Shown: positions 28,857 through 44,496 of the stretch, one piece after another | How the letters are laid out: each line of letters starts with the position of its first letter | How positions within the stretch are numbered: the first letter of the stretch is position 1 | Sequence record: KP869113 | Length of the DNA stretch: 64,000 nucleotides | From: Escherichia coli O157 typing phage 15 | Reading direction: 5' to 3' (one strand) | Notes under the pieces: generated by a model | Databases searched by the model: none | What the model saw: only the letters and a program-made list of their open reading frames with translations | What the model was told of the DNA's origin: nothing | Position numbers and translations under genes: made by a program

Positions 28857-28861
28857 AAATT

Positions 28862-28940: not shown

Positions 28941-28942
28941 AT

Positions 28943-29018: not shown

Positions 29019-29026
29019 TTAAATCT

Positions 29027-30248: not shown

Positions 30249-30324
30249 TGGTGCTCCCACAAGGACTCGAACCCTGATAAGTTGCTTACAAGGCAACCGT
30301 AATAACCAATTATACGATAGGAGC
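30249..30324 (-). tRNA. tRNA-Thr (anticodon UGU)
   Basis: Acceptor GCTCCTA/TGGGAGC, T-arm CAGGGTTCGAGTCCTTG, anticodon stem GTTGC/GCAAC loop CTTGTAA, CCA. Confidence 0.7.
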
Positions 30325-30331
30325 ATTAATT

Positions 30332-30406
30332 TGGAGCATCCAGAGGGAATCGAACCCTCAACCTCAGTTTGGAAGACTGTAATTTTCCCGTTTAAACTAT
30401 GGATGC
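30332..30406 (-). tRNA. tRNA-Gly (anticodon UCC)
   Basis: 75 nt; acceptor GCATCCA/TGGATGC, T-arm GAGGGTTCGATTCCCTC, anticodon loop CTTCCAA. Confidence 0.65.
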
Positions 30407-30412
30407 ACTAAT

Positions 30413-30488
30413 TGGTGGAGTCACTGAGAATTGAACTCAGTTCCCAAGTTTGCAAAACTCGAATTTTAACCATATAAACTATGACCCC
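30413..30488 (-). tRNA. tRNA-Ala (anticodon UGC)
   Basis: Acceptor GGGGTCA/TGACTCC with G3-U70 wobble (Ala identity element), anticodon stem CGAGT/ACTTG loop TTTGCAA, T-arm CTGAGTTCAATTCTCAG, CCA. Confidence 0.7.
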
Positions 30489-30494
30489 ATTGTT

Positions 30495-30570
30495 TGGTAC
30501 AGGTGGAGGGAATTGAACCCATCGTCTTACTGATTAAGAGTCAGCCGCATAACCATTTTGCTACACCTGC
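30495..30570 (-). tRNA. tRNA-Lys (anticodon CUU); atypical T-stem
   Basis: Acceptor GCAGGTG/CACCTGT, anticodon stem GCTGA/TCAGT loop CTCTTAA; T-arm ATGGGTTCAATTCCCTC pairs only 3 bp canonically. Confidence 0.5.
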
Positions 30571-30577
30571 ATTAATT

Positions 30578-30654
30578 TGGTACACCTAGAGAGATTCGAA
30601 CTCACACTGAGCAGATTCTAAGTCTGCTGCCTCTACCAGTTGGGCTATAGGTGC
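30578..30654 (-). tRNA. tRNA-Leu (anticodon UAG), tentative; short variable arm
   Basis: 77 nt; acceptor GCACCTA/TAGGTGT, anticodon stem GCAGA/TCTGC loop CTTAGAA, T-loop TTCGAAT, CCA; D-arm CCCAACTGGTAGAGG. Confidence 0.5.
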
Positions 30655-30912
30655 ATTAAATCTTTTTAGAGAACTTCTAAGAACCTGAGCAACAAGGTTC
30701 CACAACAAGCGACTAATAACCTTAGAAGCCCTCTAAAAAGACCTAAATAGGTCTTTGCATAGTCTTGTTTAATCCGGTGACTAGAACCTTTGGAGAGCTT
30801 GATATTATCTCTTCTCCGTGACACCTACTAGGTGTTTTATCAGTGTGTACAACAATACACGCGGTATACCAAAGCAACATCCGAATGAAGCTTGGCTTTA
30901 AATCTTATTAGG
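30655..30912 (-). ncRNA. Structured spacer in tRNA array (candidate stable small RNA)
   Basis: 258 nt with no tRNA and no ORF of 60 aa or more; four local hairpins (GAACC..GGTTC, GACCT-AAAT-AGGTC, CACCT-ACT-AGGTG, GTGTA..TACAC). Confidence 0.3.
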
Positions 30913-31000
30913 CGGTAAGTAAAGGAGTCGAACCCTCACCGTATCTCTACAGTGGCAACTGTTTTCAAGACAGTTTGGCTACCATTAGCCGCTACCTACC
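30913..31000 (-). tRNA. tRNA-Ser (anticodon UGA), long variable arm; CCA not encoded
   Basis: 88 nt; acceptor GGTAGGT/ACTTACC, anticodon stem ACTGT/ACAGT loop CTTGAAA, T-loop TTCGACT. Confidence 0.6.
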
Positions 31001-31013
31001 CCTAATAAGACTG

Positions 31014-31418
31014 CTAAATACTTAACAGTCCTGCATGAACTTTCCTATGACAGTTTGAGCAAAGCACAACACACTTACGAACTTCACGCTTAATAGTTCC
31101 CCTAGAGTAAGTCTTAAGATTGCTTGGAGCAAAATCTTTCTCTTTAGGGTCTAAGTGATGAAAATCTAAAGCTACTGGCTCGGATTCACCACATATTCTG
31201 CATTTGCAAAACTTTTTATATCTACTAAGGAACTCTCTGTTTCTCTTTTTGTCATATTTTGCTCTAACTTTCCTTTTTGCTTTATAAGTAGGGTCTTCTT
31301 TGTATCTCTTTGCTGAGTACTTAGCTTTACAATCTTTGCAAGCAGACTGATAGCCATTCCCTCTTTTATGAAAGCAACTTAAAGGCTTCTCTTGAGAACA
31401 TTTTCTACAAAGTTTCAT
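31014..31418 (-). CDS. HNH homing endonuclease inserted in the tRNA array
   Basis: N-terminal CxxC...CxxC zinc ribbon; C-terminal HNH motif DFHHLDP...LCSNCHRKVH; lies between tRNA-Ser and tRNA-Trp. Confidence 0.75.
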   Translation of the reverse strand: MKLCRKCSQEKPLSCFHKRGNGYQSACKDCKAKYSAKRYKEDPTYKAKRKVRAKYDKKRNREFLSRYKKFCKCRICGESEPVALDFHHLDPKEKDFAPSNLKTYSRGTIKREVRKCVVLCSNCHRKVHAGLLSI

Positions 31419-31432
31419 ACAAGCACCTTTTC

Positions 31433-31503
31433 TGGCAGGGGTGTAGAGATTCGAACTCTAATCAAGAATTTTGGAGACTCTATTGCTGCCATAGCTCACC
31501 CCT
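31433..31503 (-). tRNA. tRNA-Trp (anticodon CCA), compact (71 nt)
   Basis: Acceptor AGGGGTG/CACCCCT, T-arm TAGAGTTCGAATCTCTA, anticodon stem AGAGT/ATTCT loop CTCCAAA, CCA encoded; short D-arm. Confidence 0.55.
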
Positions 31504-31651
31504 ATTAAAACTATAATTCGAAGCTTACCGTATTATCTCAACACTGTAAAGCCCCTTCTCAGATTATTTACATGTTCTGGAAAACATGAGATACAGACCA
31601 CCTCCCTACAGGAAGACCCGCTTAGGTCGTCTAAGTAATCTGCTAACTAAT
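31504..31651 (-). ncRNA. Structured spacer without canonical tRNA (candidate small RNA or degenerate tRNA)
   Basis: 148 nt; hairpin CTTAG-GTCGT-CTAAG; contains ATTCGAAG but no pairable T-stem or acceptor. Confidence 0.25.
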
Positions 31652-31728
31652 TGGCACACCCTACAGGATTCGAACCTGTAACTAACGATTTAGAAGACCG
31701 TTGCTCTATCCAATTGAACTAAGGGTGC
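31652..31728 (-). tRNA. tRNA-Arg (anticodon UCU)
   Basis: Acceptor GCACCCT/AGGGTGT, D-stem GTTC/GAGC, anticodon stem ACGGT/ATCGT loop CTTCTAA, T-arm ACAGGTTCGAATCCTGT, CCA. Confidence 0.7.
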
Positions 31729-32003
31729 ATTAACATTTTAAAGGGTACTCATTGCATTTAAGCCAAGCCCCATAAGGGATACCCTTTAGAATGTTGCCCA
31801 CCTTATTAATCATACCGTGGGCTAGTACGCCAAATTCTTTGATGAGGGATTGGAAGACCTCACTGGTGTTTAGCCTATCAAGCTACTGCCAGAAAAACAT
31901 TGTCGTTTGCATTTATTTTAAATTTGCAAAATAGACGCTACGCAACGAAAACTAAGGTTACTATAAAGTAGTCACATCTCAATGTCAACAACTTTATTGA
32001 AAT
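31729..32003 (-). ncRNA. Structured 275-nt spacer in tRNA array (candidate small RNA and/or internal promoter)
   Basis: No tRNA, no long ORF; hairpins AAGGGTA..TACCCTT and TTTGCA..TGCAAA. Confidence 0.25.
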
Positions 32004-32079
32004 TGGTACTGGTAGGTGGAATCGAACCACCGATGTTCCCTTATCAGGGGAGTGTTATAACCTTCTTAACTATACCAGC
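32004..32079 (-). tRNA. tRNA-Ile (anticodon GAU)
   Basis: Acceptor GCTGGTA/TACCAGT, T-arm GGTGGTTCGATTCCACC, anticodon loop CTGATAA, CCA. Confidence 0.65.
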
Positions 32080-32080
32080 T

Positions 32081-32157
32081 TGGAGGTTCAGATGGGAATC
32101 GAACCCACATTCATAGGGCTTATGAGACCCTTGCATTACCTTATCTGCGACTGAACC
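32081..32157 (-). tRNA. tRNA with anticodon CAU (Met, or Ile2 if lysidinylated)
   Basis: Acceptor GGTTCAG/CTGAACC, T-arm GTGGGTTCGATTCCCAT, anticodon stem AGGGT/GCCCT loop CTCATAA, CCA. Confidence 0.6.
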
Positions 32158-32235
32158 AGAATAAGTACCCTAGTTAGAGAAACTGTTGAGTGGGTGTTTC
32201 CAGCCGCGCAGGTGTTTCTTAGTTAAGGGTGAATT

Positions 32236-32311
32236 TGGTAGAAGTGGAGGGATTCGAACCCATCGCCTGTCAGATTAAAAGTCTGCCGCATCACCATTCT
32301 GCTACACTTCC
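32236..32311 (-). tRNA. tRNA-Lys (anticodon UUU); atypical T-stem, paralog of 30495..30570
   Basis: Acceptor GGAAGTG/CACTTCT, anticodon loop CTTTTAA, T-arm ATGGGTTCGAATCCCTC with only 3 canonical pairs. Confidence 0.5.
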
Positions 32312-32317
32312 ATTAAA

Positions 32318-32457
32318 TTATCTTTGTAGATAAGCTACCCAGACTTGCTTAAGGTCTGTAGCGATGTGCCTTTTTGGGTTTAAATCTAGAATTTACCCTT
32401 TCACCCTTTGTGGTCGCATACTCACAGGTAAGCTTAATAACTTATCTACAAAGATAA
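32318..32457. repeat. 17-bp perfect inverted repeat (TTATCTTTGTAGATAAG / CTTATCTACAAAGATAA) enclosing a 106-nt core
   Basis: Arms at 32318-32334 and 32441-32457; core has no tRNA and no ORF. Confidence 0.6.
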
Positions 32458-32511
32458 TTACCAGACCGTTGTTTATCATCTTAAGTGCTACCATTACACC
32501 AACTCGACATC

Positions 32512-32536
32512 TGCCGAGTGAAGGAATCGAACCTTC
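32512..32536 (-). pseudogene. tRNA-like 3' fragment (T-arm plus acceptor 3' strand) with no identifiable 5' half
   Basis: Canonical T-arm GAAGGTTCGATTCCTTC followed by ACTCGGC, but no complementary acceptor strand, D-arm or anticodon arm upstream. Confidence 0.3.
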
Positions 32537-32740
32537 GCCTTTTCTTTACCGGAGAAATAGATTGTTTAAGTTTTGCTGTAAACGGTCTTCTGTAAATTTG
32601 TTGAGCCAGACCAAGTTTTAAATTTTTCAAAATTAAATTGGCTTGAAATTTTAAATAACTTGCTGTATTTGGTCTTCTGCTCCTTTAAAGAATACTCGTA
32701 AGAACCCTTTAAGGGAGGGGCTAAATAGCCCTCTCAAAAT

Positions 32741-32818
32741 TGGCGGTTACGAAGGGATTTGAACCCTCATCATCTCCCGTGACAGGGGAGTATTTTAACC
32801 AAATTAAACTACATAACC
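32741..32818 (-). tRNA. tRNA-Asp (anticodon GUC)
   Basis: Acceptor GGTTATG/CGTAACC, anticodon stem CTCCC/GGGAG loop CTGTCAC, T-arm GAGGGTTCAAATCCCTT, CCA. Confidence 0.7.
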
Positions 32819-32823
32819 TTTAT

Positions 32824-32911
32824 TGGTGTGCCGTGTAGGAGTCGAACCTACCGAGTCTCAATGACAAGGGATTTACAGTCCCCACCGCTACCATCTACGG
32901 GATAACGACAC
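32824..32911 (-). tRNA. tRNA-Tyr (anticodon GUA), long variable arm
   Basis: 88 nt; acceptor GTGTCGT/ACGGCAC, anticodon stem GGGGA/TCCCT loop CTGTAAA, T-arm GTAGGTTCGACTCCTAC, CCA. Confidence 0.7.
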
Positions 32912-32980
32912 ATTTAATTTCTATTCAGGCTAAGGACTTGTACCTTACAAATCGGTGAGCAATCGCTTCTCTCCTAAATT

Positions 32981-33057
32981 TGGCGGTTAGTCAGGGATTC
33001 GAACCCTGTGCCATTCGCTTAACAGGCGACCGCACATACCTTATGTGCTTCCTAACC
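32981..33057 (-). tRNA. tRNA-Asn (anticodon GUU)
   Basis: D-stem GCAC/GTGC, anticodon loop CTGTTAA, T-arm CAGGGTTCGAATCCCTG, CCA. Confidence 0.65.
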
Positions 33058-33141
33058 ATGTTTAGTATTACCAGACCGTATATTTCAATTTTTTCCGCTA
33101 AAAATTTAATAAATATTGCTGTAAACGGTCTTCTGTAAATT
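33058..33141 (-). repeat. Inter-tRNA spacer hairpin element (ACCAGACCGT ... ACGGTCTTCTG family)
   Basis: Stem arms AGACCGT/ACGGTCT around an AT-rich loop; minus strand also reads TTTACAGAAGACC (-35-like). Confidence 0.5.
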
Positions 33142-33218
33142 TGGAGGCGGGTGCAGGAGTCGAACCTGCCGATACCATGCTAATGAGACATGTGAGACGC
33201 CCTTTCTCTATACCCGCA
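33142..33218 (-). tRNA. tRNA with anticodon CAU (Met / initiator / Ile2 candidate), non-canonical features
   Basis: T-arm GCAGGTTCGACTCCTGC, anticodon stem CATGT/GCATG loop CTCATTA, CCA encoded; position 1-72 apparently unpaired. Confidence 0.5.
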
Positions 33219-33308
33219 ATTCTTAATGACCAGACCAAATATCTTCTTTGTCCGATTAACTTTCAGATGAGTAGATTAAGTTTGCTGTAATTGGTCTTCT
33301 GTCAAAAC
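33219..33308 (-). repeat. Inter-tRNA spacer hairpin element, second copy with compensatory changes
   Basis: Arms AGACCAA/TTGGTCT replace AGACCGT/ACGGTCT of the first copy, preserving pairing; minus strand reads TTGACAGAAGACC. Confidence 0.5.
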
Positions 33309-33386
33309 TGGCGTTCCAGAAGGGATTTGAACCCTCAAATATCCACTTTGAAAGAGTGGTGACTTTACCATTTTGTCTACTGGAAC
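33309..33386 (-). tRNA. tRNA-Glu (anticodon UUC)
   Basis: Acceptor GTTCCAG/CTGGAAC, anticodon stem CCACT/AGTGG loop CTTTCAA, T-arm GAGGGTTCAAATCCCTT, CCA. Confidence 0.7.
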
Positions 33387-33393
33387 ATTAATT

Positions 33394-33473
33394 TGGTCTC
33401 CGTTGAAGGATTTGAACCCTCGACCCCTTGCTCCCAAAGCAAGTGCTGCTAAACCAGACTGAGCTAAACGGAG
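33394..33473 (-). tRNA. tRNA-Pro (anticodon UGG)
   Basis: Acceptor CTCCGTT/AACGGAG, anticodon stem CTTGC/GCAAG loop TTTGGGA, T-arm GAGGGTTCAAATCCTTC, CCA. Confidence 0.7.
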
Positions 33474-33638: not shown

Positions 33639-35054
33639 TTACCAGATATAACGGTCAATCATTACTGCTTTGAGCATTACACTGATTGGGTCAAACTTCT
33701 CACCACCAAGCAGAGCTTTTAAAGTGGCTGGAGAGAACCCTGATACCATTGCTACACCGTTATCCTTAACAGATACTTCGCAAGTACCATTACGGTTTGC
33801 TAAGTACCAGAATACCAGTTGTGGCATCTCATATCCAGCTTTTTTGTACTTACTCTGAATTGCTTCAAAGTTTGTACGACCGTTAGCTCCATCAACCTGA
33901 TTAAACTCCATATCGGAGAAGATGATAAGCTTACTTGGCATATCTTTCTGAGTCAAGTTGTTTCTTTTACCTGTTTCAAGAATGCGGTCAAAAGCTGCTT
34001 GTAAGTTAGTTGAGCCATATTCAACGTGTCGCATCACCTGACGATGACGGTTTCGTAAATCACCACTCAGTTCGATGAAGTGAGGGTTTGTTGAATAAAC
34101 CATCAACTCATTCTTAAAGCAACCTGTATTGCGTTCTGCTACATACAAGGCAAGTGATACACCAATATCCAGAGCAGTAATGGAGCCAAAATTCACCCAA
34201 GACATTGAACTTGATACATCAGACATACACAAGATGTTTTCACCTTCTGCCATCCAGTTTGGTAGTGCTTTCCACTGCTCATTAGCAACATCTGCATTAC
34301 CATACTTGACAGATTTAATCACATCGTATGGGTAAACAGCACCAGCGTTAATCTTAGTCTCACCTTTTGATAAGGACTCGATGTAAGCTTTGTAACGCTC
34401 TCCATCTTTACGGTTAAACAGTTTTTGGTAACGTGCAGCAGCAAGTGAAGGAATCTTACTGTAGTCAATCTTACCAAACTCATTAGCAGAGATTTTTTGC
34501 TCAACTGTATCAGATAGTGCAGACAACAGTGTGCGGTACTCTTTCTCACTCAAGTTGGCAAACTTGCAGAAACGTTTTACAAACTGCTTATGACGTGGTT
34601 TGACTCGTGGTAACCACTTAGCCGCCAAACCTGCTGTTGCAGGGTCTAGTAATGCTGCTTCTAAATGTTTGAAGGCATCTGTCTCGAAACGAGTACCTAC
34701 GAAGATTTTGAAGTCATCAAAACGACCAAGTTCTGCAATCTTATCCATAATGCGAAGAACCTGCGTAGACTCTAAAACTTTGTCTTCAATCGCTTGAAGT
34801 AAAACAGCTCTGAAGGCTTTACGCTCACCCATACCTTCTCGTACATCTCGCATATGCAGTAAAATACGAACTGCAACATCAACATCCTCACGCAAAGCTT
34901 TGTAGAACAGGTCTGGTAAGATTTCTACATTGCTACGGCTTGAACCAGCAGCTTTGTAAAAGTCTACAAGAGCAGACATTGATGAAGTATGGTTTACAGC
35001 ACCATTTTCAGTTCGACCTGCATGAAGGTGCGCATGTTTAAATAACTCGCTCAT
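33639..35054 (-). CDS. vWA-domain protein with MIDAS motif and about 270-aa helical N-terminal domain (possibly Ro60/TROVE-like)
   Basis: C-terminal half has DxSxS MIDAS motif (MSDVSSSM) followed by hydrophobic strand typical of vWA fold; N-terminal half is helix-rich; immediately upstream of the tRNA array on the same strand. Confidence 0.55.
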   Translation of the reverse strand: MSELFKHAHLHAGRTENGAVNHTSSMSALVDFYKAAGSSRSNVEILPDLFYKALREDVDVAVRILLHMRDVREGMGERKAFRAVLLQAIEDKVLESTQVLRIMDKIAELGRFDDFKIFVGTRFETDAFKHLEAALLDPATAGLAAKWLPRVKPRHKQFVKRFCKFANLSEKEYRTLLSALSDTVEQKISANEFGKIDYSKIPSLAAARYQKLFNRKDGERYKAYIESLSKGETKINAGAVYPYDVIKSVKYGNADVANEQWKALPNWMAEGENILCMSDVSSSMSWVNFGSITALDIGVSLALYVAERNTGCFKNELMVYSTNPHFIELSGDLRNRHRQVMRHVEYGSTNLQAAFDRILETGKRNNLTQKDMPSKLIIFSDMEFNQVDGANGRTNFEAIQSKYKKAGYEMPQLVFWYLANRNGTCEVSVKDNGVAMVSGFSPATLKALLGGEKFDPISVMLKAVMIDRYIW

Positions 35055-35135
35055 ATTTTACTCTCTTCTCTCATTTGTTGTTTGATGTGACAGACTTTAG
35101 AGCAACTTTATAGAGTCTGTCAACATCTTTTAAAA

Positions 35136-35507
35136 TTATTTTTTAAGGGTTGCAACAGCAGAGAACGTTGGTTTGTTATCTGTCTGAGACTGACCACCGT
35201 TATCAGGAGTCTTCTTAGTGTCTGCTGCAATTGCTTTCATCTCACCTGCTGAGTGGGTCATGATAGTTTTACCGACTTCAATCATGCTCTTGATGGTTAC
35301 ATCGTCTGTGTTTAACCCGAACTCTGCAAGCTTAGCAGCGTCCCTTGTAACAATCGCCTCAAACAACTTTGCAGCAAACTCAGCAGAATTATCAATGGTC
35401 AGTTGAGCTTTTACAAGTGAGCTTTTGTTACGAGAGCCTTTTGGTCTTCCAGATGGGTTTCCAGACTGGCCTTTTTTAAACTGGCCTTTGTTTGTTCTGT
35501 TTTTCAT
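35136..35507 (-). CDS. Hypothetical basic protein (123 aa)
   Basis: ORF with KGQSGNPSGRPKG motif common in small phage proteins. Confidence 0.4.
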   Translation of the reverse strand: MKNRTNKGQFKKGQSGNPSGRPKGSRNKSSLVKAQLTIDNSAEFAAKLFEAIVTRDAAKLAEFGLNTDDVTIKSMIEVGKTIMTHSAGEMKAIAADTKKTPDNGGQSQTDNKPTFSAVATLKK

Positions 35508-35756
35508 TGGTATGCCTCTTATAAGACCTCTTAAAAGGCTTTTAAGATAAAAGATAGATATCCAGAAAGATATCTGTTTAAATAGCCTTTTTAGAGGAAC
35601 CTTTTAAGTTATCTTCTAAGTATTTATAAGCCTACACCTTGTCAAGTACTTTGTCAACAACTTTTTTAACTTGCAATAGTTCTTGACTTGTTGTATGGAT
35701 TACTGTACCATCTTACTTAAAGCTGTAGGTCTGCCTTGTTCTACAAAGGAGACTTA
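35508..35756. promoter_or_regulatory. Divergent intergenic control region
   Basis: Several TTGACA/TTGACT-like hexamers and palindrome AGATATC..GATATCT between divergently oriented gene blocks. Confidence 0.35.
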
Positions 35757-35918
35757 ATGAGAAAATCAAATAAACCGAAGAAAGGTAAGAATACCAATCA
35801 CTGTAAGGAATCCAAAAGGGTAGAGTTAATCTACTATTCATCCTCTGAAATTGGTCTGTACCTGTTCTTTCAAAATTACAGAAGACAAGAGGATTATCTA
35901 TGTGTAGTTCCCAATTAG
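35757..35918 (+). CDS. Small hypothetical protein (about 53 aa)
   Basis: ATG at 35757 preceded by AAGGAGA; track ORF 35736..35918 trimmed to the RBS-supported start. Confidence 0.35.
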   Translation: MRKSNKPKKGKNTNHCKESKRVELIYYSSSEIGLYLFFQNYRRQEDYLCVVPN

Positions 35919-36133
35919 AAATCGCAGATATTATAGATTTATATCAAACTGCAAAGAGTCATGGCTATATAACCTCAATTGGAAAGAATAGTCACTATGA
36001 TGCTTTGACTGGAATGTATTTCAGGGCAATGGCTCAATCTAGTGAACAACACTTAATGGTTTCTTCCAGTGAGTTTACTTCGTTTCTCTATTGCAGCAAA
36101 ATTATAAATCGCAGGAGAACTGAAAAATGCTAA
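35900..36133 (+). CDS. Hypothetical protein (77 aa)
   Basis: Track ORF in co-directional gene array. Confidence 0.35.
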   Translation: MCSSQLEIADIIDLYQTAKSHGYITSIGKNSHYDALTGMYFRAMAQSSEQHLMVSSSEFTSFLYCSKIINRRRTEKC

Positions 36134-36717
36134 CAGTAAGTTTTAATTACAATAGTGATGGCTCTGTATCAATTAATTCACCATATGCAAATGACCTACT
36201 TAAAGAGCTAGTCAATCAGTGTGATAGAGGTCTTCACTATGTTCAAAATTCTTTTAAACAGAAGACTATTGCTAATAACTTGATGCGTGTAACAGTAACG
36301 GCATCGAATCCAAATTATGACTTTGATAGTGAAAGTCCGTACTCATTAGTTGCGCTTGGAGAGAGCAGCCAATTCAAACTTGTTTGCCACGACTCAGAAA
36401 CATTCCTTAAGGTCTTTTCCAACCTTATCCATAATAATAAGTACAGCTACGTTGATGGTAGTGTAAATTTCTATCCAGCAAACTATACATGTTTGTTGGT
36501 TGATAATATGAGAAAAAGTAAGCAAGAGCCTACGGAAATTTCATTTGATGTGAACTCTAGTCCAGACGCAGAAACAAGTAAGAACTTTGATATGAGTTAC
36601 GCATTGTCACTTAGTAAGAAATCCGAGTTCATTGATTATGTCAATGGATTTGGTTTTAAGTTTGATGAGAGTATGAATCTTAAAAAACTTAAGAACCTAC
36701 TTAAGACCAAAGCTTAA
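36127..36717 (+). CDS. Hypothetical protein (196 aa)
   Basis: Track ORF, no recognised motif. Confidence 0.4.
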   Translation: MLTVSFNYNSDGSVSINSPYANDLLKELVNQCDRGLHYVQNSFKQKTIANNLMRVTVTASNPNYDFDSESPYSLVALGESSQFKLVCHDSETFLKVFSNLIHNNKYSYVDGSVNFYPANYTCLLVDNMRKSKQEPTEISFDVNSSPDAETSKNFDMSYALSLSKKSEFIDYVNGFGFKFDESMNLKKLKNLLKTKA

Positions 36718-36764
36718 GTGTGAATAGGGGCTGATGCCCCTTTAACTATTTATAAGGATATTTA

Positions 36765-37136
36765 ATGAAAGCTAAGAGTGCAAAAGACTTTTATTGCTTC
36801 CTACAATCCTATATCAATTCCGTGCAAAATGGTGAAAGGTACAACCTTAATGATGTTATCCCAACACCTTTGACATGGAGACTCAGTAAATGGCCTGAAG
36901 AAGATATTACACCAACAATCGAACAATGCACCTACAAACCCGAAATCAATATTCCAGACTCTGAGAATCTATTATATCCAATGTTCCATATTGTTGGTCT
37001 TGGAAGATTCCTTATGGATATCCAGTATATAATTGGTAAAGGTTATAAGGTTAAAGGTATTGTTGTTGGTGATGTATCTCCGAATCACAAAGGTTATTTT
37101 AGGCTAAACGCACATTTAGAGGCTGAAAAGAAATGA
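36765..37136 (+). CDS. Hypothetical protein (123 aa), paralog of N-terminal domain of next gene
   Basis: Shares the pattern W-PEEDI / YKPE / LLY / FxMDxQY with the first about 125 residues of the 37133..38014 protein. Confidence 0.5.
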   Translation: MKAKSAKDFYCFLQSYINSVQNGERYNLNDVIPTPLTWRLSKWPEEDITPTIEQCTYKPEINIPDSENLLYPMFHIVGLGRFLMDIQYIIGKGYKVKGIVVGDVSPNHKGYFRLNAHLEAEKK

Positions 37137-38014
37137 TTAAAGCAAAGACTTACCCAGACTTCAAAGAGTTTGTGAAGGGCTTCATTGCAAACGTAAAGGC
37201 TGGTAAGAGGTATGATTTTAGAACATATCAAGAGGCTATTTTACCACTTACCTATAGCTCGTATTGGCCTGAAGCTGATATTGCAGAAGTTGAGAAGTTT
37301 GACTATAAACCAGACTATAAAGTCCCATTTAGTGATGAGTTGCTTTACAGTGTTGGTGCTCAAATGAGAACTTCTGACTTCTTCATGGACTTACAATATG
37401 CAATTATCAATGGTAAAGACGTTGATACAGTTTATTGTGAATGGCTGGCAAGAGTTAAACCATTCTCAATGTTGAATGCTAAGTTGAAGGACGCTATCAA
37501 GCCACCATCAATCACTCAGCAACCAACCAATCAAACAGTAAATGAAGGTGGTACACTTACCCTAAGCGTTATTGCAACTAATGCCACTGGATATCAATGG
37601 AAAAAGGATGGTGAGGATATCACTAGCGCCACATCTGCAACCTACACAAAACAGTCTGTAGAACCTTCTGATGCAGGTTCATACACTTGCGTTGTAACAG
37701 GTGCAGGTGGTTCTGTCACTTCTAGCCCTGCAACGGTTACTGTTAACGCACTTCCGGTAATCACTCAACAGCCAACCAATCAAGAAATCAATGAAGGTGA
37801 GACCTTAACGCTGAATGTTGTGGCAACAGGTGCGACAGGTTACCAGTGGAAGAAAGGTGAGGAAGACATCCTTGATGCAACTACTGCAACTTACACCAAA
37901 GAAGGTGCGACCGCTGCTGATGCAGGAAGCTACACCTGTGTAGTTACTGGTGCAGGTGGCTCTGTAACATCCAATGCAGCAACAGTTACAGTTAACCCAG
38001 CAGGGGAGGCGTAA
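37133..38014 (+). CDS. Protein with paralogous N-domain plus two tandem Ig-like repeats
   Basis: Two about 80-aa repeats ITQQPTNQ..NEG.TLTL.V.ATGATGYQWKK.....ATYTK....DAGSYTCVVTGAGGSVTS..ATVTVN; stop overlaps endolysin start. Confidence 0.55.
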   Translation: MIKAKTYPDFKEFVKGFIANVKAGKRYDFRTYQEAILPLTYSSYWPEADIAEVEKFDYKPDYKVPFSDELLYSVGAQMRTSDFFMDLQYAIINGKDVDTVYCEWLARVKPFSMLNAKLKDAIKPPSITQQPTNQTVNEGGTLTLSVIATNATGYQWKKDGEDITSATSATYTKQSVEPSDAGSYTCVVTGAGGSVTSSPATVTVNALPVITQQPTNQEINEGETLTLNVVATGATGYQWKKGEEDILDATTATYTKEGATAADAGSYTCVVTGAGGSVTSNAATVTVNPAGEA

Positions 38015-38478
38015 TGCAACTCTCAAGAAAAGGTTTAGATGCTATTAAGTTCTTCGAAGGTCTGGAGTTAGAGGCTTACGAAGATTCTGCCGGAATCCCA
38101 ACAATCGGGTATGGGACAATCCGTATTGACGGAAAACCTGTTAAGATGGGTATGAAAATTACTGCTGAACAAGCTGAACAGTATCTTCTCGCGGATGTTG
38201 AGAAGTTTGTTGCAGCAGTGAACAAAGCTATCAAGGTTCCAACTACTCAGAATGAGTTCGATGCACTTGTAAGTGAAACATACAACATCGGTATCACAGC
38301 TATGCAGGATTCCACATTTATCAAGCGCCACAATGCTGGTAATAAGGTAGGTTGTGCAGAAGCTATGCAGTGGTGGAACAAGGTTACAGTCAAAGGTAAG
38401 AAGGTCACTTCAAACGGTCTGAAAAACAGACGTAGAATGGAAGCTGACATTTATCTTGACAGTGTATACCCAAAGTAA
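38014..38478 (+). CDS. Endolysin, GH24 phage lysozyme family
   Basis: N-terminal catalytic motif FEGLELEAYEDSAGIPTIGYGT characteristic of T4/lambda-type lysozymes; 154 aa; followed by terminator. Confidence 0.8.
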   Translation: MQLSRKGLDAIKFFEGLELEAYEDSAGIPTIGYGTIRIDGKPVKMGMKITAEQAEQYLLADVEKFVAAVNKAIKVPTTQNEFDALVSETYNIGITAMQDSTFIKRHNAGNKVGCAEAMQWWNKVTVKGKKVTSNGLKNRRRMEADIYLDSVYPK

Positions 38479-38487
38479 TATCTTCAT

Positions 38488-38515
38488 AGGCTCCTTCGGG
38501 AGCCTTTTTTATTTT
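38488..38515 (+). terminator. Rho-independent terminator after endolysin
   Basis: AGGCTCC-TTCG-GGAGCCT followed by TTTTTTATTTT. Confidence 0.7.
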
Positions 38516-38529
38516 CTAAGGAGAAAGCT

Positions 38530-38928
38530 ATGAAACTTTGGGCTAGTGACTTTGGAACTTTTAAGTACACTCGTAATGGCTCGCTTGTACGCATTGTCGG
38601 GAACAATGTGGTTTCAAGAGGTGACAAGGTATATACACGGTTTACTGTAGAGCTTGTTGAGCTGTCACCTATTGAGTCTGTGAACAATGGCCTGTTCAAG
38701 TTTGAGACTTACAATGTCAACGAACATGGACAATTCAACCCTCTTGGTGAAAGTGGACTTGATATTATTTCAGAGCACCCATTGACAAAAGAGCAACTCG
38801 CAAGTTATTATAAAACTGTTCTGGAAAGGCAGTTAGCAACACATGAACAAGAAGCTAACTATCATTTACAACATTGCGAAGCTTTAAGAGCAAAAATAGA
38901 ACAAGCAGAGAGAGGTTTTTATGAATAA
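38530..38928 (+). CDS. Hypothetical protein (132 aa)
   Basis: ATG preceded by AAGGAGAAAG. Confidence 0.45.
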   Translation: MKLWASDFGTFKYTRNGSLVRIVGNNVVSRGDKVYTRFTVELVELSPIESVNNGLFKFETYNVNEHGQFNPLGESGLDIISEHPLTKEQLASYYKTVLERQLATHEQEANYHLQHCEALRAKIEQAERGFYE

Positions 38929-39310
38929 AGAGATTCAAGTAAAAGTTGACACCTTTGGCCATGATGGTCGAGAAGATGCTGGACTTGCTGACGCAGTGAT
39001 TTTTGAGTGTAATGGAAATATTAGTCTTCGCTTTACAGGCTCAGGTAGCACCCTTCGCAGAATGCGAGATGATGCAGATGGTTGCCCTGTATTTGGCTGG
39101 TATGACATGGAGTTTCCTCTTTACGCCATCCATTATCCAGATGGTGGAGAAGACTGGACAACTCAATCAATCCGCGATGAGCTTAATGGCATTCCAGTTG
39201 AGCAAGAAGAGCAAGAGCCTGTTGAACTCACATTCACTTTTATCAAAGAAGAGAAAGTTGGTGATTTGTCTGTAACTGAAGCAATTCAAGTCTCACAGGT
39301 TATTCGTTAA
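38921..39310 (+). CDS. Hypothetical protein (129 aa)
   Basis: Track ORF, coupled. Confidence 0.4.
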   Translation: MNKEIQVKVDTFGHDGREDAGLADAVIFECNGNISLRFTGSGSTLRRMRDDADGCPVFGWYDMEFPLYAIHYPDGGEDWTTQSIRDELNGIPVEQEEQEPVELTFTFIKEEKVGDLSVTEAIQVSQVIR

Positions 39311-39603
39311 TGAGTAAAGTACAGGTTGTTTTCCCTATTTGTGACTTCTCACTAGAGCGTGAACTTGACCTGTACGAAGAAATTACTGACGAAATTATCT
39401 GGTCTGTTGTAGAAGAGGCTATCAAGAAGCTGTATGGTGGCCTCTTAAATCCATCAAGTAAGAAGTTAAGCACTAAGCAAGTAGCTGACCCATATGTTTC
39501 ATACGATGCCTACAACAAGCCTTTTGAAAATACCTGCTTTGACCTTATGGTAGGTAATAACAAAGTCAACTATTTCTTCGTCAGAGAGTTTAACGATGAG
39601 TAA
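39310..39603 (+). CDS. Hypothetical protein (97 aa)
   Basis: Track ORF, coupled. Confidence 0.4.
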   Translation: MSKVQVVFPICDFSLERELDLYEEITDEIIWSVVEEAIKKLYGGLLNPSSKKLSTKQVADPYVSYDAYNKPFENTCFDLMVGNNKVNYFFVREFNDE

Positions 39604-39940
39604 GCTCCATGTCACAGTTTACAAAAACTTCTCAGATATCAAAGAGTCTTTAACAAATAAGCTTGACTTACAACGTAAAAGACTCTTTTTAATGTATGAC
39701 ATAGACAACTACAACCATCCTAAAGAGTTTAACTACAAAGATGGTACAAAGGTTGTTGAGTTTGAAGATTCTGTGACGGTGTATGTCAAGCATGACTTAC
39801 CAGCAAAGTATATAGGGATGTTAGAGTACTACATATTCAAACATACTGGTATGCGTGGTGAATCTGTTAAGATATCTTCTATAGAAGTTTTTGAGAAACC
39901 TAACACACAACTTAAAAAGTATTTAATGAGGAAACTGTAA
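39596..39940 (+). CDS. Hypothetical protein (114 aa)
   Basis: Track ORF, coupled. Confidence 0.4.
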   Translation: MSKLHVTVYKNFSDIKESLTNKLDLQRKRLFLMYDIDNYNHPKEFNYKDGTKVVEFEDSVTVYVKHDLPAKYIGMLEYYIFKHTGMRGESVKISSIEVFEKPNTQLKKYLMRKL

Positions 39941-40521
39941 TGTCAGAAGAACATGAGCATATCCAACCAGAAGTTACATTAGTAAAACATTTCGGAAATG
40001 TAGAAGGCTGTGTAGCACTTTTTCAGACTAACATCAATTCTCCAGTCAAACTGTGCAAATTGACGATAAACACTAACAACATCAGTGTATGCGTGAATGA
40101 AGAAGTACAATACTTCAAATTCAATGATAAAGAGGTTGATGCTGCACTACTGAAATACAGAGCAAATCTTGAAAAAGATATTGACCATAAAGAGGTTGTG
40201 AGTCTCTTTGCAGACCTACATAAGCTTCTTGATAAGGTTGAAAAAAGAACATACTACATGAATAATGGCTCTATCATTACCACTATGATTTCACCATGTA
40301 TCTCTGAGCCAATCTTCACAGATGATGGTGCTTATTATATTGTAGCTTCGGCAGTGTCTGATTGGTGGTTAAAAAATAACGCCCTGAAAACAGTGATTGA
40401 TGCTATCAGAGAACACATCCCTACATTTAGTCCGTGGAAGGGTAAAGGTGATGAATTTATCGCACTGTTGAGTGAAGAGAGTAACAAGCGCAGTGCATTA
40501 CTGCCTAAAAAATACTCTTGA
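39940..40521 (+). CDS. Hypothetical protein (193 aa)
   Basis: Track ORF. Confidence 0.4.
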   Translation: MSEEHEHIQPEVTLVKHFGNVEGCVALFQTNINSPVKLCKLTINTNNISVCVNEEVQYFKFNDKEVDAALLKYRANLEKDIDHKEVVSLFADLHKLLDKVEKRTYYMNNGSIITTMISPCISEPIFTDDGAYYIVASAVSDWWLKNNALKTVIDAIREHIPTFSPWKGKGDEFIALLSEESNKRSALLPKKYS

Positions 40522-40593
40522 CCGAGTATACAATATTGATTATGATGGGAGCTATCGAGAGGTAGTTCCCTTTTTAGTTTCTGGAGAATAGAT

Positions 40594-41139
40594 ATGGCTA
40601 AAGTGAAAGAACACGATAAAATTATTTTGTATGTTAAACAGAATCCTTCAAAGAGTGTTGAGGCTGTTGTAACACACATCTCACACAATGGAACAGTTTA
40701 TTTTCAACCACTGAAGAACTTAGACTTTGACACAACACCAAACCACACATTTAGTACTTCTGCAAGACTGTGTGCTGGAACTGTATACTCGACTGCTGAG
40801 ATTGAGTCCTTATCTTTCACAGGTGCTTACAAAAACTTTATAGGGATTGCTTTAAAGGACTCTGAGGAATCTTTTAAATTCTTCATGGAGACCAATAAAG
40901 GCTGTTATGCACATGTTATGCCAGTCTATAAGAAAGTTGACACAGAACTTACAAGCAAGTGCGAAGAGATTAGCAGCGACCTGAAGGAGCGTAAAACAGC
41001 TATTCAGAATGCTATTTACATCATTGAGAGGGACCACTTAGAAGTTCTTTTCAGAGATATGCTAAAAGCAGGGTTTACCCCAAACGAAATTACAAGAGAA
41101 ACACAACGCCAGTTCAGAAACGCTATGGTGAAAGAATGA
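40594..41139 (+). CDS. Hypothetical protein (181 aa)
   Basis: Track ORF. Confidence 0.4.
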   Translation: MAKVKEHDKIILYVKQNPSKSVEAVVTHISHNGTVYFQPLKNLDFDTTPNHTFSTSARLCAGTVYSTAEIESLSFTGAYKNFIGIALKDSEESFKFFMETNKGCYAHVMPVYKKVDTELTSKCEEISSDLKERKTAIQNAIYIIERDHLEVLFRDMLKAGFTPNEITRETQRQFRNAMVKE

Positions 41140-41354
41140 AAAAACTAACTACAGTTGAAGATTACTACAAACTGTCCTTGTTAGAACAGTATCGCAGAAG
41201 CCAGAATATCAGAAAATGCTATGGTAAACACGCTGAAGGTGACTTTTACCATTGTTACGATGCAGATTTAAAAGGTGTAACACCTAGAGGAAAAGTTCTG
41301 CAAAGATTTGTTGACCTTGAATGGAACAAGAGATTGAGAGGGGTTGGAAAATGA
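41136..41354 (+). CDS. Hypothetical protein (72 aa)
   Basis: Track ORF, coupled. Confidence 0.35.
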   Translation: MKKLTTVEDYYKLSLLEQYRRSQNIRKCYGKHAEGDFYHCYDADLKGVTPRGKVLQRFVDLEWNKRLRGVGK

Positions 41355-41854
41355 TTTACGAAGAAAGATATAAGATAGATTACCAGAAGACTGGTCATCA
41401 TGTCTCTTTAAGAGTAACCAAACCAAATGGAGATACCGGTATCATAGCACATTTTGGTGGTGATTATTGGTATGGTACAGGTTGCTTTGAAGGCTACACT
41501 CAAGAATACTTGAAAGCTTTCTACAGAGACTTTACAAACGACTACAACAGGGTTGTTGACGAAAAGAATAAGTGCATTAAGCATGAATACCATGCCAGAG
41601 GTTGTCTGAATATTGTTATGATACTGGCTTTCTTCTTAGCAATGTTACTGGCAGTATCAGCAATTAGCTGCATAGCTCAAGATTTGACAATTACACAGAT
41701 TACTGCAAAGCTACATGATATCTGGTACTTGTATACTGTTCCTTTAGCTGGTATTATCATCTCACTAATAAGATTCAGAGTTCATAAGAAACGACTTAAG
41801 GATTCCGAGGTTAAACTTGAAGAGGTAAGTAAAGAATGCAACCTACAATTATAG
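41321..41854 (+). CDS. Membrane protein (177 aa) with two C-terminal transmembrane helices
   Basis: Hydrophobic segments LNIVMILAFFLAMLLAVSAISCI and YLYTVPLAGIIISLI. Confidence 0.4.
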   Translation: MEQEIERGWKMIYEERYKIDYQKTGHHVSLRVTKPNGDTGIIAHFGGDYWYGTGCFEGYTQEYLKAFYRDFTNDYNRVVDEKNKCIKHEYHARGCLNIVMILAFFLAMLLAVSAISCIAQDLTITQITAKLHDIWYLYTVPLAGIIISLIRFRVHKKRLKDSEVKLEEVSKECNLQL

Positions 41855-41930
41855 CTGTATGTGTTCGTTTTGCAATCGCTGAAATGATTAACAAGGCAAT
41901 CTTAAAAGATGCCTATGGAGAGACTAAGTA

Positions 41931-42155
41931 ATGATTAAGACGCCTGTACCAATTTTTGGATTTCCTTCTATAGAAGAGTTCAAAGTTTACCTTGACAAAA
42001 ACTTCTACAACGAGCAACCTGTTACTTTGCTGAAGAGTGACTTATCAGAGCTTCTTGATATGGTTATCAAGGCAACTTCTGAGAAGGAACCTGAACAGAA
42101 AGCTGAGAAGAAGACTAGTAAGAAATCCGATAAGAAGACTGAAAAGTCTGAGTAG
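41931..42155 (+). CDS. Small protein with K/E-rich tail (74 aa)
   Basis: Track ORF. Confidence 0.35.
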   Translation: MIKTPVPIFGFPSIEEFKVYLDKNFYNEQPVTLLKSDLSELLDMVIKATSEKEPEQKAEKKTSKKSDKKTEKSE

Positions 42156-42207
42156 TAGCTTGAGGGGTTACTTGATAGCCCCTTTGTAGAACTTAGAAGG
42201 TAGCGAA

Positions 42208-42630
42208 ATGAAAGAGCTTATTGGTAAAAGATTGACAGTTTACTGCTCTAAAACAAAGAAACCACTTACTTCTGTGAAGGTCTTTGATGTTGACACCACT
42301 GGTGTAGAGTACCCAATCCAATGCACAATAATTACTCCATTCCATGCAGATGATATGGATTTTAAAGAGTGTGAAGTGATATCTTTTAATGCTGATGGGT
42401 ATTGGAGAGGTAAGTTAAACAAGCAATCAGAAGATTTTGATATGCAAATCATTATCAATGAAGGCTATATCGGTGTAAAAGATATCCTCGTAGAAGCCTA
42501 TGAAGAAGGTATAATTGATATTGTGCATGATGTTGAAAAAGCTTTAAAGCTTGTTATGCCGCATTTAGAATCTGGAAAGCTGACTTTAGAGATGCTTAAT
42601 AGGATTATTCGGAGAGCTTATGAAAATTAA
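42208..42630 (+). CDS. Hypothetical protein (140 aa)
   Basis: Track ORF. Confidence 0.4.
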   Translation: MKELIGKRLTVYCSKTKKPLTSVKVFDVDTTGVEYPIQCTIITPFHADDMDFKECEVISFNADGYWRGKLNKQSEDFDMQIIINEGYIGVKDILVEAYEEGIIDIVHDVEKALKLVMPHLESGKLTLEMLNRIIRRAYEN

Positions 42631-43084
42631 AGAAGTAGTGCAAAGAGCAATGCTTGATAATTCTACTAAAGATGAGATGTACACAGAAATTTGTGATAAG
42701 TTGAACTGCTCAAGACATGCTGCTAAGGTTCTTGTACATTGTTTTATTTGGGAATGCTCAGAAGCCTATATGAAACACGTAGCTTTTGAGAGTTCTCATT
42801 TACTCGGTGATGTAAAAATAGGTGTAGCACTAAAAGAGCCTGAGATGAAAACAGTACCTAAGGTCGGTAATGTGTATAAACTAAAAAATTTTATTACAGG
42901 CGAGATTGTTGCAGAAGGTGAAGTGCAACAGGTTTATCATGATGGTAAATATCTGTTTAAGATATTCGAGTATGATAGTCGTTACAGACACTTATGTGGT
43001 ATTACATTTTTAGTTTCAGAGGATGACCTCATCAAGAACAATAGTAATAAATTCGCAGTACCAGAATATCAAGTTTTACGATAA
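42620..43084 (+). CDS. Hypothetical protein (154 aa)
   Basis: Track ORF. Confidence 0.4.
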   Translation: MKIKEVVQRAMLDNSTKDEMYTEICDKLNCSRHAAKVLVHCFIWECSEAYMKHVAFESSHLLGDVKIGVALKEPEMKTVPKVGNVYKLKNFITGEIVAEGEVQQVYHDGKYLFKIFEYDSRYRHLCGITFLVSEDDLIKNNSNKFAVPEYQVLR

Positions 43085-43097
43085 TGGTGTGATAGAT

Positions 43098-43646
43098 ATG
43101 GAAAAAGATAACTTAAAAGATGTTGAAGGTAACTATCTAGTCCTTGACTGGAAGGATGTTCGGGAAGCACTCTCCGAAGAAAATCTTGACTGGTTCGAAC
43201 AAATTATCTTTGCAGTACGGCATAACCGAGAAGTTGAAAATGGTAAAGAGCCACTTGAAGGAATCTTTGTAGATAGGTCTTATCCATTCTATGAAGACAC
43301 TTTGCAGAAAGTTAAGATGTACTTTAGACAGAAGAACCGTAAAGTGGTCACTATGGTATCTCTTGGTGGACAGAATATGTCTGTGATGGAAGATATTAAT
43401 CCTAAGAGACCGAGTAAAGGTATCTGTATAAAAATCACAGGACATGAAGAGTATATCTCAGTGGATGACTTTAGTGCATTCTGTAATGGCTCTTGTGTCT
43501 TTAATGGTTTTCACTATGATATCCGAGTGTACCCAATCAAGGGAGATGATATCATGATGCAGGTATTCGATAATAACAACGGCTTTACTCATTTTTATCA
43601 GACAACCAAGTCATCACTAAAAACAGTTCTGGAAACACTGATTTAA
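43098..43646 (+). CDS. Hypothetical protein (about 182 aa)
   Basis: Track ORF 43023..43646 trimmed to the ATG at 43098 to remove overlap with the upstream gene. Confidence 0.4.
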   Translation: MEKDNLKDVEGNYLVLDWKDVREALSEENLDWFEQIIFAVRHNREVENGKEPLEGIFVDRSYPFYEDTLQKVKMYFRQKNRKVVTMVSLGGQNMSVMEDINPKRPSKGICIKITGHEEYISVDDFSAFCNGSCVFNGFHYDIRVYPIKGDDIMMQVFDNNNGFTHFYQTTKSSLKTVLETLI

Positions 43647-43656
43647 AATATCTTAA

Positions 43657-43690
43657 GAGCCTCCTTAATTGGGGGCTTTTTTTAATTTTT
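43657..43690. terminator. Bidirectional terminator at convergence of plus and minus gene blocks
   Basis: AGCCTCC-TTAATT-GGGGGCT followed by TTTTTTT. Confidence 0.6.
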
Positions 43691-43699
43691 ATAAAAATT

Positions 43700-43965
43700 T
43701 TATCGGTTGTTCCAACCTCTGGGTCACCATCATATGTGAATAAAATATCTATCCTTCTTAACAACCTTCTTAATCTTACTCTCTATATATAGTTATATAG
43801 TACTATATAGTGTCTTAGTAACTATCTAGTGGTCTTAATAGCCCCTCTGTATAACCCTTCTAAATAGCCCTCTAAACACTCTTCTAACAAGCCTTCTTAA
43901 CAACCTATACAATCACCTTAACCATCTCTCTATACGCTCTTAGAAGCCTCTATACACCTCACCCC
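43700..43965. repeat. Pyrimidine-rich CTTAACAA-type repeat region; 43881-43957 identical to 898-974
   Basis: Same word family as 898-2733; 77-bp exact match. Confidence 0.6.
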
Positions 43966-44164
43966 AATAATGGTAGTGAGATTCCTCGTTTATGGCTTCT
44001 TTTACGGCATCTTTCCAGAAGTCATCAGTAGGGTTATAATCTGGTATCACCTGCTGAATCAGCATTTTGATAAGGTCAAAGGTATTATCTGTTCCACCGA
44101 TATCGAATTTTGCATCAAGTTGGTGGCAGCCATAAGCATTAACAGTTACGCGGATAGTTGACAT
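43940..44164 (-). CDS. Small early protein (74 aa)
   Basis: ORF immediately downstream of a promoter/hairpin/RBS cassette. Confidence 0.45.
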   Translation of the reverse strand: MSTIRVTVNAYGCHQLDAKFDIGGTDNTFDLIKMLIQQVIPDYNPTDDFWKDAVKEAINEESHYHYWGEVYRGF

Positions 44165-44230
44165 AATTTAGAATCTCCAGTTTAGGACTTTATTTAGTGG
44201 GGAAGGTCATTCCCTCCCCGTTGTTTAGTA
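44165..44230 (-). promoter_or_regulatory. Early-gene leader cassette, family 1
   Basis: Coding-strand consensus CAACGGGGAGGGAATGACCTTCCCCACTAA(G/A)TAAAGTCCTTAAACT(A/G)GAGATTC then ATG. Confidence 0.55.
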
Positions 44231-44232
44231 AT

Positions 44233-44496
44233 TTACTGCATATTGGCGTAGGTTGCAAGCCTTTTTTCGTTGTATTTTGTCAGAATTTCACAAGATAGAA
44301 CATCGTACATTGTAACCGCTTTGCTTTTGTCGAGGTCAAAAAAGCCAAATGCTTTACCATCTTTGAATCCGACAACTTCGTAAGATTCTTTAATGATTTC
44401 ACCATTGAACAAATCACTTTCGATACGGTGAAACAACGCTACGTCTTCTTTGTCAGTTGCAATCTGCAATAGTGTGGTTAATTCTACGTGTTCCAT
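44233..44496 (-). CDS. Small early protein (about 87 aa)
   Basis: Track ORF 44233..44601 trimmed to the ATG at 44496 that directly follows the cassette RBS. Confidence 0.45.
   Translation of the reverse strand: MEHVELTTLLQIATDKEDVALFHRIESDLFNGEIIKESYEVVGFKDGKAFGFFDLDKSKAVTMYDVLSCEILTKYNEKRLATYANMQ

Follow-up and report, generated by a model that had tools for sequence, protein, structure and literature searches.

Two tandem proteins of 123 and 293 amino acids (aa) are encoded directly upstream of the endolysin gene in Escherichia coli O157 typing phage 15 (sequence record KP869113), and the longer of the two ends in a pair of immunoglobulin (Ig)-like repeats. Do these proteins belong to the lysis machinery, as a prediction made by a model from the DNA letters implied, or do they work elsewhere? 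Our analysis covered a 64,000-nucleotide (nt) stretch of the record, which we call the window. Because the 293-aa protein matches capsid chains of phages Bas63 and Sf14 and its ortholog was found by virion proteomics, it is, as judged by orthology, the already described Hoc-like protein that decorates hexamer centers on the heads of Felix O1-type phages. We consider it highly probable that the explanation as a whole is right: the long protein is this decoration protein (Hex-Dec), the short protein is a functional, non-essential duplicate, and neither has a role in lysis. The two genes and the parts of the long one are as follows.

36765-37136, plus strand: short gene, 123 aa, 14.2 kDa, paralog of the capsid-binding domain of Hex-Dec but Ig-less (phrog_4463)
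37133-38014, plus strand: long gene, 293 aa, 31.5 kDa (calculated), Hex-Dec (phrog_3995 over the full length; PDB chain matches)
37133-37486, plus strand: capsid-binding domain, aa 1-118, with Arg79 and Arg107 (~98% identical to the modelled part of 9ncf_S)
37505-37753, plus strand: Ig-like repeat 1, aa 125-207, I-set/Ig_3 type (Pfam and repeat comparison)
37754-38002, plus strand: Ig-like repeat 2, aa 208-290, whose ortholog in Bas63 Hex-Dec is the fourth and last repeat

Both reading frames lie exactly where the original prediction had placed them. Window positions 36000-39000 are 100% identical to Escherichia typing phage 1 (TP1; KP869100 / NC_041979; Ounavirinae, Felixounavirus), and the same block is present in ~250 Felix O1-like genomes. 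RefSeq names the short gene of NC_041979 FDI04_gp124 ("hypothetical protein") and the long gene FDI04_gp123 ("tail protein"); the endolysin gene, rrrD, follows.

Comparison of the 293-aa protein with PDB sequences using phmmer returned 9ncf_S ("Immunoglobulin-like domain protein," 460 aa) with an E value of 0 and 9c2d_S/9c3a ("tail protein," 372 aa) with an E value of 3.6e-191, both aligned from residue 1. Residues 1-125 are ~98% identical to Bas63 Hex-Dec, and the protein is 93% identical to its Felix O1 ortholog, gp36. The Bas63 and Sf14 chains come from icosahedral capsid reconstructions, and the Bas63 paper names the protein Hex-Dec (PMC12609058). Sf14 gp20 was detected in virions by mass spectrometry (MS) (PMC11821841), as was Felix O1 gp36, a 31.6-kDa protein whose gene adjoins that of lysin gp35 (14 peptides, 44% coverage; PMC3185647). 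The original prediction had noted that Ig-like repeats are better known from decoration-type or adhesion proteins, and the first half of that hint proved apt, as the long protein is the ortholog of the hexamer-center decoration protein solved in Bas63 and Sf14.

The two structures describe closely similar arrangements. In Bas63, the N-terminal domain of Hex-Dec consists of pseudo-C2 lobes, sits as a monomer in hexamer centers, occupies facet-edge hexamers only, and is followed by disordered Ig-like domains; its gene lies >10 kb outside the structural module, and its relatives carry one to four Ig domains (PMC12609058). In Sf14, the capsid-binding domain of gp20 is the N-terminal 118 aa, Arg79 and Arg107 form salt bridges with Asp221 of three of the six major capsid protein subunits, and gp20 does not occupy the 20 hexamers that lie on true 3-fold axes (PMC11821841). 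If the window protein behaves like these close orthologs, its N-terminal ~118-aa domain would insert as a monomer at the center of the 60 pentamer-proximal hexamers of a T=9 capsid, with Arg79 and Arg107 anchoring it to Asp221. Arg79 is present in 44 of 44 long forms and Arg107 in 43 of 44; the window protein has both. The two Ig-like domains, which are acidic (calculated pI 4.1), would project outward as a flexible Hoc-like fiber that, by analogy, is probably responsible for weak adhesion or aggregation, through which virions would be positioned close to hosts. Earlier publications (2010, 2025) already cover the Ig-bearing protein, where it sits, the variation in its repeat number, and its mis-annotation.

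How, then, does the decoration gene come to lie beside the endolysin? The elements that bear on this question are these.

36727-36741, plus strand: GC-rich hairpin GGGGC-TGAT-GCCCC followed by TTT, weakly terminator-like, between a gene for a 196-aa protein and the short gene
37119-37122, plus strand: GAGG Shine-Dalgarno sequence of the Hex-Dec gene, within the 3′ end of the short gene
38014-38478, plus strand: endolysin, 154 aa, GH24 phage lysozyme (Pfam Phage_lysozyme, E 4.5e-41)
38488-38505, plus strand: strong intrinsic terminator AGGCTCC-TTCG-GGAGCCT with a T-run, at which the three-gene unit ends

The short and long genes overlap by ATGA at 37133-37136, with the GAGG upstream of the overlap, and the stop codon of the long gene shares one base with the endolysin ATG (TAATG), as had been claimed. 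Annotators of phage Mordin mark terminators at positions equivalent to both the hairpin and the 38488-38505 terminator. The short paralog, Hex-Dec, and endolysin genes would thus form a short unit bounded by the hairpin and the terminator, outside the structural module. The gene order 196-aa-like protein, decoration protein, endolysin recurs in Mooglevirus, Suspvirus, Kolesnikvirus (Erwinia), a Hafnia ounavirus, and two metagenomic lineages, and from this distribution the adjacency of decoration gene and endolysin is ancestral in Ounavirinae. The overlap itself is not conserved: gaps of 2-50 nt separate the two genes in Sf13, Sf14, Erwinia Rouille, and Hafnia SarahDanielle. In reverse-transcription PCR (RT-PCR) of Felix O1, genes 36 and 37, the counterparts of the long and short genes, group with the portal, baseplate, and fiber genes as late genes, whereas lysin gene 35 has its maximum at an earlier time. 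Both genes are therefore expressed, with late maxima, in Felix O1; lack of expression was one of two findings that the original prediction said would refute it.

A role for the pair in lysis, whether through wall or carbohydrate binding that aids the endolysin or as a holin substitute, has in its favor the position of the genes immediately upstream of the endolysin, the TAATG overlap, an adjacency conserved across Ounavirinae, and the lack of an adjacent holin. This last feature, also remarked on in the original prediction, agrees with our hydropathy scan, which found no membrane protein beside the endolysin, and had already been reported for the Felix O1 lysin (PMC3185647); the UAB_Phi87 paper, which contains no proteomics, likewise reports no holin beside the lysin. 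However, neither paralog has a membrane segment (maximal 19-residue Kyte-Doolittle values of 1.16 for the short and 1.04 for the long protein; threshold 1.6), the overlap varies, the timing in Felix O1 differs from that of the lysin, and orthologs of the long protein are bound to the capsid in two cryo-EM structures and were detected in virions by MS. We regard a lysis role as very improbable, and a functional link to lysis, toward which the original prediction pointed, found no support. Most likely, the adjacency reflects transcription of neighbors as one unit, and the position of the Hex-Dec gene beside the endolysin says nothing about lysis.

A motif considered as a late promoter, TATTTATAAGG, located between the hairpin and the short gene, was dropped: it had 4 matches against 2.1 expected, and 16 of 100 shuffles gave an equal result. 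A literature search for Felixounavirus transcriptomes found nothing relevant. Elsewhere in the window, far from the endolysin, genes at 52687-53034 (minus strand), 3534-3905 (minus), 54236-54784 (minus), and 41351-41854 (plus) encode small proteins with N-terminal or internal hydrophobic segments: one of 115 aa and one of 123 aa, each with a single N-terminal transmembrane segment; one of 182 aa, which has a signal peptide plus an SLT-like motif; and one of 167 aa, in which two stretches are hydrophobic. These distant hydrophobic proteins are candidates for a holin or spanin. In Erwinia phage Rouille, a "putative holin" is annotated three genes after the endolysin (L004 4388-4621).

The name "tail protein" raises a separate possibility, since many records call the long protein "tail protein" or "HK97 major tail subunit," and phrog_3995 is labeled tail. 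The matches to major tail proteins (phrog_158, phrog_853, and phrog_3575) are, however, confined to the Ig region (aa 127-207), and the Ig region alone resembles tail proteins, which explains both the "HK97 major tail subunit" label and the PHROG tail matches. The long protein has no tail-tube domain and begins with the capsid-binding domain, its orthologs have been visualized on the capsid, and the Bas63 paper states that the "tail protein" annotation is wrong (PMC12609058). We give a tail role, as entered in RefSeq and PHROGs, almost no credence; the label is a legacy mis-annotation of the Ig domains. In TP1 and most Felix O1-like genomes, "tail protein" should be corrected to head decoration protein.

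Comparison with known systems places the window protein among the Hex-Dec proteins. Bas63 (Escherichia phage JohannRWettstein) has the same gene order of short paralog, Hex-Dec, and endolysin, and its Hex-Dec (9NCF chain S) is an ortholog with the same Ig repeat type but four repeats (460 aa) rather than two (293 aa). Shigella phage Sf14 (Mooglevirus) gp20 (9C2D/9C3A chain S) is likewise an ortholog, with the N-terminal 118-aa domain, Arg79 and Arg107, and occupancy of pentamer-proximal hexamers only; it differs in having three Ig repeats and a small gap, not an overlap, before the endolysin. The capsid location is shown for the Bas63 and Sf14 proteins and predicted by orthology for the window protein. 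T4 Hoc is similar in being a non-essential monomer at hexamer centers with an acidic string of Ig-like domains and a proposed role in adhesion or aggregation (PMC12609058, PMC11821841), but its capsid-binding domain is C-terminal, whereas that of Hex-Dec is N-terminal, and the two folds are topologically distinct and unrelated in sequence (PMC12609058). Matches of the long protein to the "Hoc-like" families phrog_2973 and phrog_4069 cover only aa 121-291. T4 Hoc is thus an analog, not a member of the same family. With T5 pb10, only the Ig region matches (E ~1e-10 to 5lxk and 8zvi, "Decoration protein"), and no similarity to the domain that binds the capsid can be detected. Major tail proteins of siphophages (lambda gpV / HK97 type) carry the same class of C-terminal Ig-like display domain but, unlike Hex-Dec, which sits on the head, have it joined to a tail-tube domain.

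The second finding named as refuting, repeats without an Ig-like fold, was also contradicted. Hidden Markov model searches with Pfam matched two stretches in the C-terminal half of the long protein, each to Ig_3 (E 1.6e-23), Ig_2 (1.4e-18), and I-set (9e-18). There are indeed two Ig-like copies, with a period of 249 nt or 83 aa, but "near-identical" overstated their similarity, which is 75% in protein and 70-76% in DNA. Window repeat 1 corresponds to Bas63 repeat 1 and window repeat 2 to Bas63 repeat 4; window repeat 1 (37505-37753) also carries the C-terminal end of a middle repeat. Single-repeat Hex-Dec proteins in EC6 (L010 2069-2701) and SP116 (L003 2498-3130) are chimeras of first and last repeats with differing crossover points. 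Since chimeric repeats have varied crossover points, the sequences indicate that repeat number, which ranges from 1 to 4 among relatives, changes by recurrent in-register recombination between repeats. This extends the published picture of Hex-Dec without altering it. In distant ounaviruses (L004 2753-3373, L005 3001-3966; P0101, P0102, P0104, and P0105), the capsid-binding domain is joined not to I-set repeats but to a domain that by eye looks like a bacterial Ig domain of the Big_2 type, and in one lineage (L013) it is fused to a Lys/Ser-rich tail only, with no Ig domain. From these examples, the display module appears exchangeable, and Hex-Dec could be used for display, as a scaffold that carries one to four Ig modules.

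What, then, is the short protein? By BLASTP, it is 37% identical over 101 aa to residues 2-100 of the long protein (E 1e-16), and the motifs WPE-DI, YKP, LLY, and F-MD-QY all fall within this alignment. Each protein also matches the PHROG of the other (phrog_4463 and phrog_3995). These sequence comparisons confirm that the 123-aa protein and the N-terminal ~120 aa of the 293-aa protein are paralogs, far beyond chance. Tandem paralogs with a shared pattern had been correctly proposed from the letters; that the shared N-terminal module is the capsid-binding domain was not recognized then. Against the PDB, the 123-aa protein matched only the two Hex-Dec chains (E 4e-12 for 9ncf_S and 2e-11), and it had no match in Pfam. 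An AlphaFold2 (AF2) model built from a 23-sequence alignment reached a pLDDT of 82 and a pTM of 0.82 (a 13-sequence alignment gave a pLDDT of 54, which was unusable). Foldseek searches with this model retrieved only 9c2d_S and 9ncf_S (TM 0.72-0.75, E ~4e-6), with the next match at E 0.4. The short protein is thus predicted to have the fold of the Hex-Dec capsid-binding domain. A programmed frameshift that would fuse the short and long reading frames was considered and rejected, as the junction has no X_XXY_YYZ heptamer and the frame relation varies among genomes (the offset is 368 nt in both TP1 and L011 but 367 nt in SUSP1).

The short form is a family of its own, restricted in its distribution. 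Its 51 clusters (at least 66% identity) comprise 50 of 104-124 aa and one of 88 aa that covers 72% of the query. None of the 51 shows a fusion, to Ig display domains or otherwise; the last residue of the window protein is number 123. When 1.84 billion representatives were searched exhaustively with a profile, only 12 clusters proved to contain the capsid-binding domain in any form, and no distant relative that reveals a function emerged; the clusters whose contigs were looked up were ounavirus-like. Among 252 related genomes, ~232 have kept the short gene intact, with Felixounavirus, Mooglevirus, and Suspvirus all represented, and a divergent 87-kb metagenomic ounavirus (L011) has the full trio, including the short gene. 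Counterparts include Felix O1 gp37, Bas63 bas63_0125, Sf14 FDI99_gp021, and VpaE1 ORF40c. In the Erwinia and Hafnia outgroups, the short gene is absent, leaving only the upstream 196-aa-like gene, the decoration gene, and the endolysin. Because it is missing there and present in the enterobacterial branch, the phylogenetic distribution places the duplication after the split from the Erwinia and Hafnia ounaviruses: the short gene arose within the enterobacterial branch by tandem duplication of the capsid-binding domain alone.

The short gene and its paralogy to Hex-Dec are not mentioned in the Bas63 and Sf14 papers, nor are the numbers of the genes flanking gp20 (PMC12609058, PMC11821841), and a keyword literature search on Hex-Dec, Hoc-like proteins, and ounaviruses found nothing that describes the gene. 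The Ig-less paralog with replaced anchors, its phylogenetic origin, a clade of natural knock-outs described below, and the recombination chimeras are thus apparently undescribed, although as advances they are modest. In some automated records, the short gene already goes by "tail protein," which suggests that annotation pipelines may have picked up the similarity. One of the Felix O1-like matches, a record entitled "Staphylococcus phage SA1," contains a short paralog of 99% identity and looks mislabeled or like a contaminant.

Sequence evolution shows how the short protein departs from its paralog. Among seven genomes (21 pairs, with dS up to saturation), the median dN/dS was 0.14 for the short gene, compared with 0.035 for the capsid-binding domain of Hex-Dec and 0.077 for the endolysin, and the mean dN of the short gene was ~2-fold that of the Hex-Dec domain. 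Per-site constraint is correlated between the short and long families (Spearman 0.39, p 1e-5). The loop containing Arg79 reads SVGAQMRTS in Hex-Dec and, as a fixed sequence, PMFHIVGLG in the short family; Gly takes position 79 in 47 of 48 sequences, and Arg107 is replaced by Gln, Asn, or His (Gln in 42 of 48). About 27 consecutive residues of the short family, including the block equivalent to the Arg79 loop, are nearly invariant. Because the loop is nearly invariant yet both anchoring arginines are replaced, the alignments imply that the surface equivalent to the capsid contact is strongly constrained but re-specified in the short protein. Differences in net charge or pI between the short protein and the long domain, examined as a clue to binding, were inconsistent across lineages and were set aside.

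A clade containing SP116, REP10, and CECAV_041 (~19 genomes; hosts Salmonella and E. coli) provides natural knock-outs. These phages share a pseudogene of the short gene with a 226-nt internal deletion and a destroyed start (L003 2306-2497, L016 1006-1197, L017 1013-1197). The remnant keeps the upstream hairpin (36727-36741 in the window) and the last ~75 nt with the GAGG site of the Hex-Dec gene, a pattern that suggests selection on the downstream translation signals. Since the short gene is under purifying selection and yet a viable clade shares this pseudogene, the gene is real, late-transcribed (in Felix O1), and functional but dispensable in one natural clade. Together with two solved reference capsids, these knock-outs make the short paralog a tractable handle on the evolution and loading of Hoc-like decoration.

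Four readings of its function can be weighed. The gene could be a functionless duplicate on its way to being lost, as the pseudogenes, the elevated dN, and the lost anchoring arginines would allow, but the dN/dS of 0.14, the retention of an intact gene in three genera and a divergent metagenomic lineage, the nearly invariant block, and transcription make this improbable. The main rival holds that the protein is a second hexamer-center decoration or "cap," located on the 20 true 3-fold hexamers or on a few portal-proximal ones and missed through averaging or low copy number. Its predicted fold, its late expression alongside structural genes, and its nearly invariant but re-specified contact loop all fit such a role; moreover, the Asp221 geometry differs on the 3-fold hexamers of Sf14 (PMC11821841), which an arginine-less paralog could suit. 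However, Bas63 and Sf14 have intact short genes, yet 9NCF and 9C2D contain no chain for the product, and according to both papers the remaining hexamers show no density (PMC12609058, PMC11821841). Neither gp37 in the Felix O1 virion protein list (PMC3185647) nor ORF40c among the virion proteins given in the main text for VpaE1 appears; the Felix O1 list was limited to proteins with at least 25% coverage, though it did include the 9.7-kDa gp23 (PMC3185647). As the gene is also dispensable in the SP116 clade, we disfavor a second decoration protein and consider it unlikely. The short protein is probably not an abundant ordered capsid component.

The remaining two readings have the short protein act on decoration rather than as decoration. 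As a tentative first choice, we propose a non-essential morphogenetic accessory that is transient or sub-stoichiometric on hexamers or on Hex-Dec; for example, it might act on procapsids or modulate Hex-Dec loading through its re-specified capsid-binding surface. A more specific and rather doubtful version makes the Ig-less paralog a dedicated decoration modulator that occupies hexamer centers transiently or binds Hex-Dec. By occupying procapsids or 3-fold hexamers, it would control where, when, and how much of the Hoc-like fiber is loaded. If this is true, phage head decoration would gain a new type of accessory factor.

Several points weigh against the account we prefer. The accessory role is an inference. 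The match found by Foldseek is circular in part, since the alignment behind the model included long-form sequences. Absence by MS is a negative from studies that applied coverage cut-offs, and icosahedral averaging would miss a site that is low in copy number or mismatched in symmetry. For ounaviruses, the adhesion role of the Ig fiber derives from the T4 Hoc analogy. The transcription unit is drawn from terminators and gene overlaps only, the earlier maximum of the Felix O1 lysin than of genes 36 and 37 is a poor fit to a simple single late transcript, and a sigma-70 promoter scan of 35000-45000 gave 27 sites where 29.5 were expected.

The gene for the 196-aa protein (36127-36717, plus strand; phrog_4034, function not assigned) lies directly upstream of the capsid-binding-domain gene or genes. 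All ounaviruses examined have a similar gene there, the Erwinia and Hafnia outgroups as well as two metagenomic lineages among them, and one homolog has a faint Pfam match to Phage_Inh_N. The 196-aa protein may have a functional connection with the decoration gene or with the endolysin. On the other side of the locus, at a coding-strand switch, ~1.6 kb (window ~43650-45290; record NC_041979 25513-27155) carry no annotated coding sequence in NC_041979. Rfam identified tRNAs only, 25 in the window, with arrays at 27669-33473 and 559-790 (minus strand). Beside the large array lies a gene (33639-35054, minus strand) for a 471-aa DUF2828/TROVE-like "RNA-binding protein," in whose relatives annotators note a vWA domain; a Ro-like protein is thus paired with a tRNA cluster in a phage.

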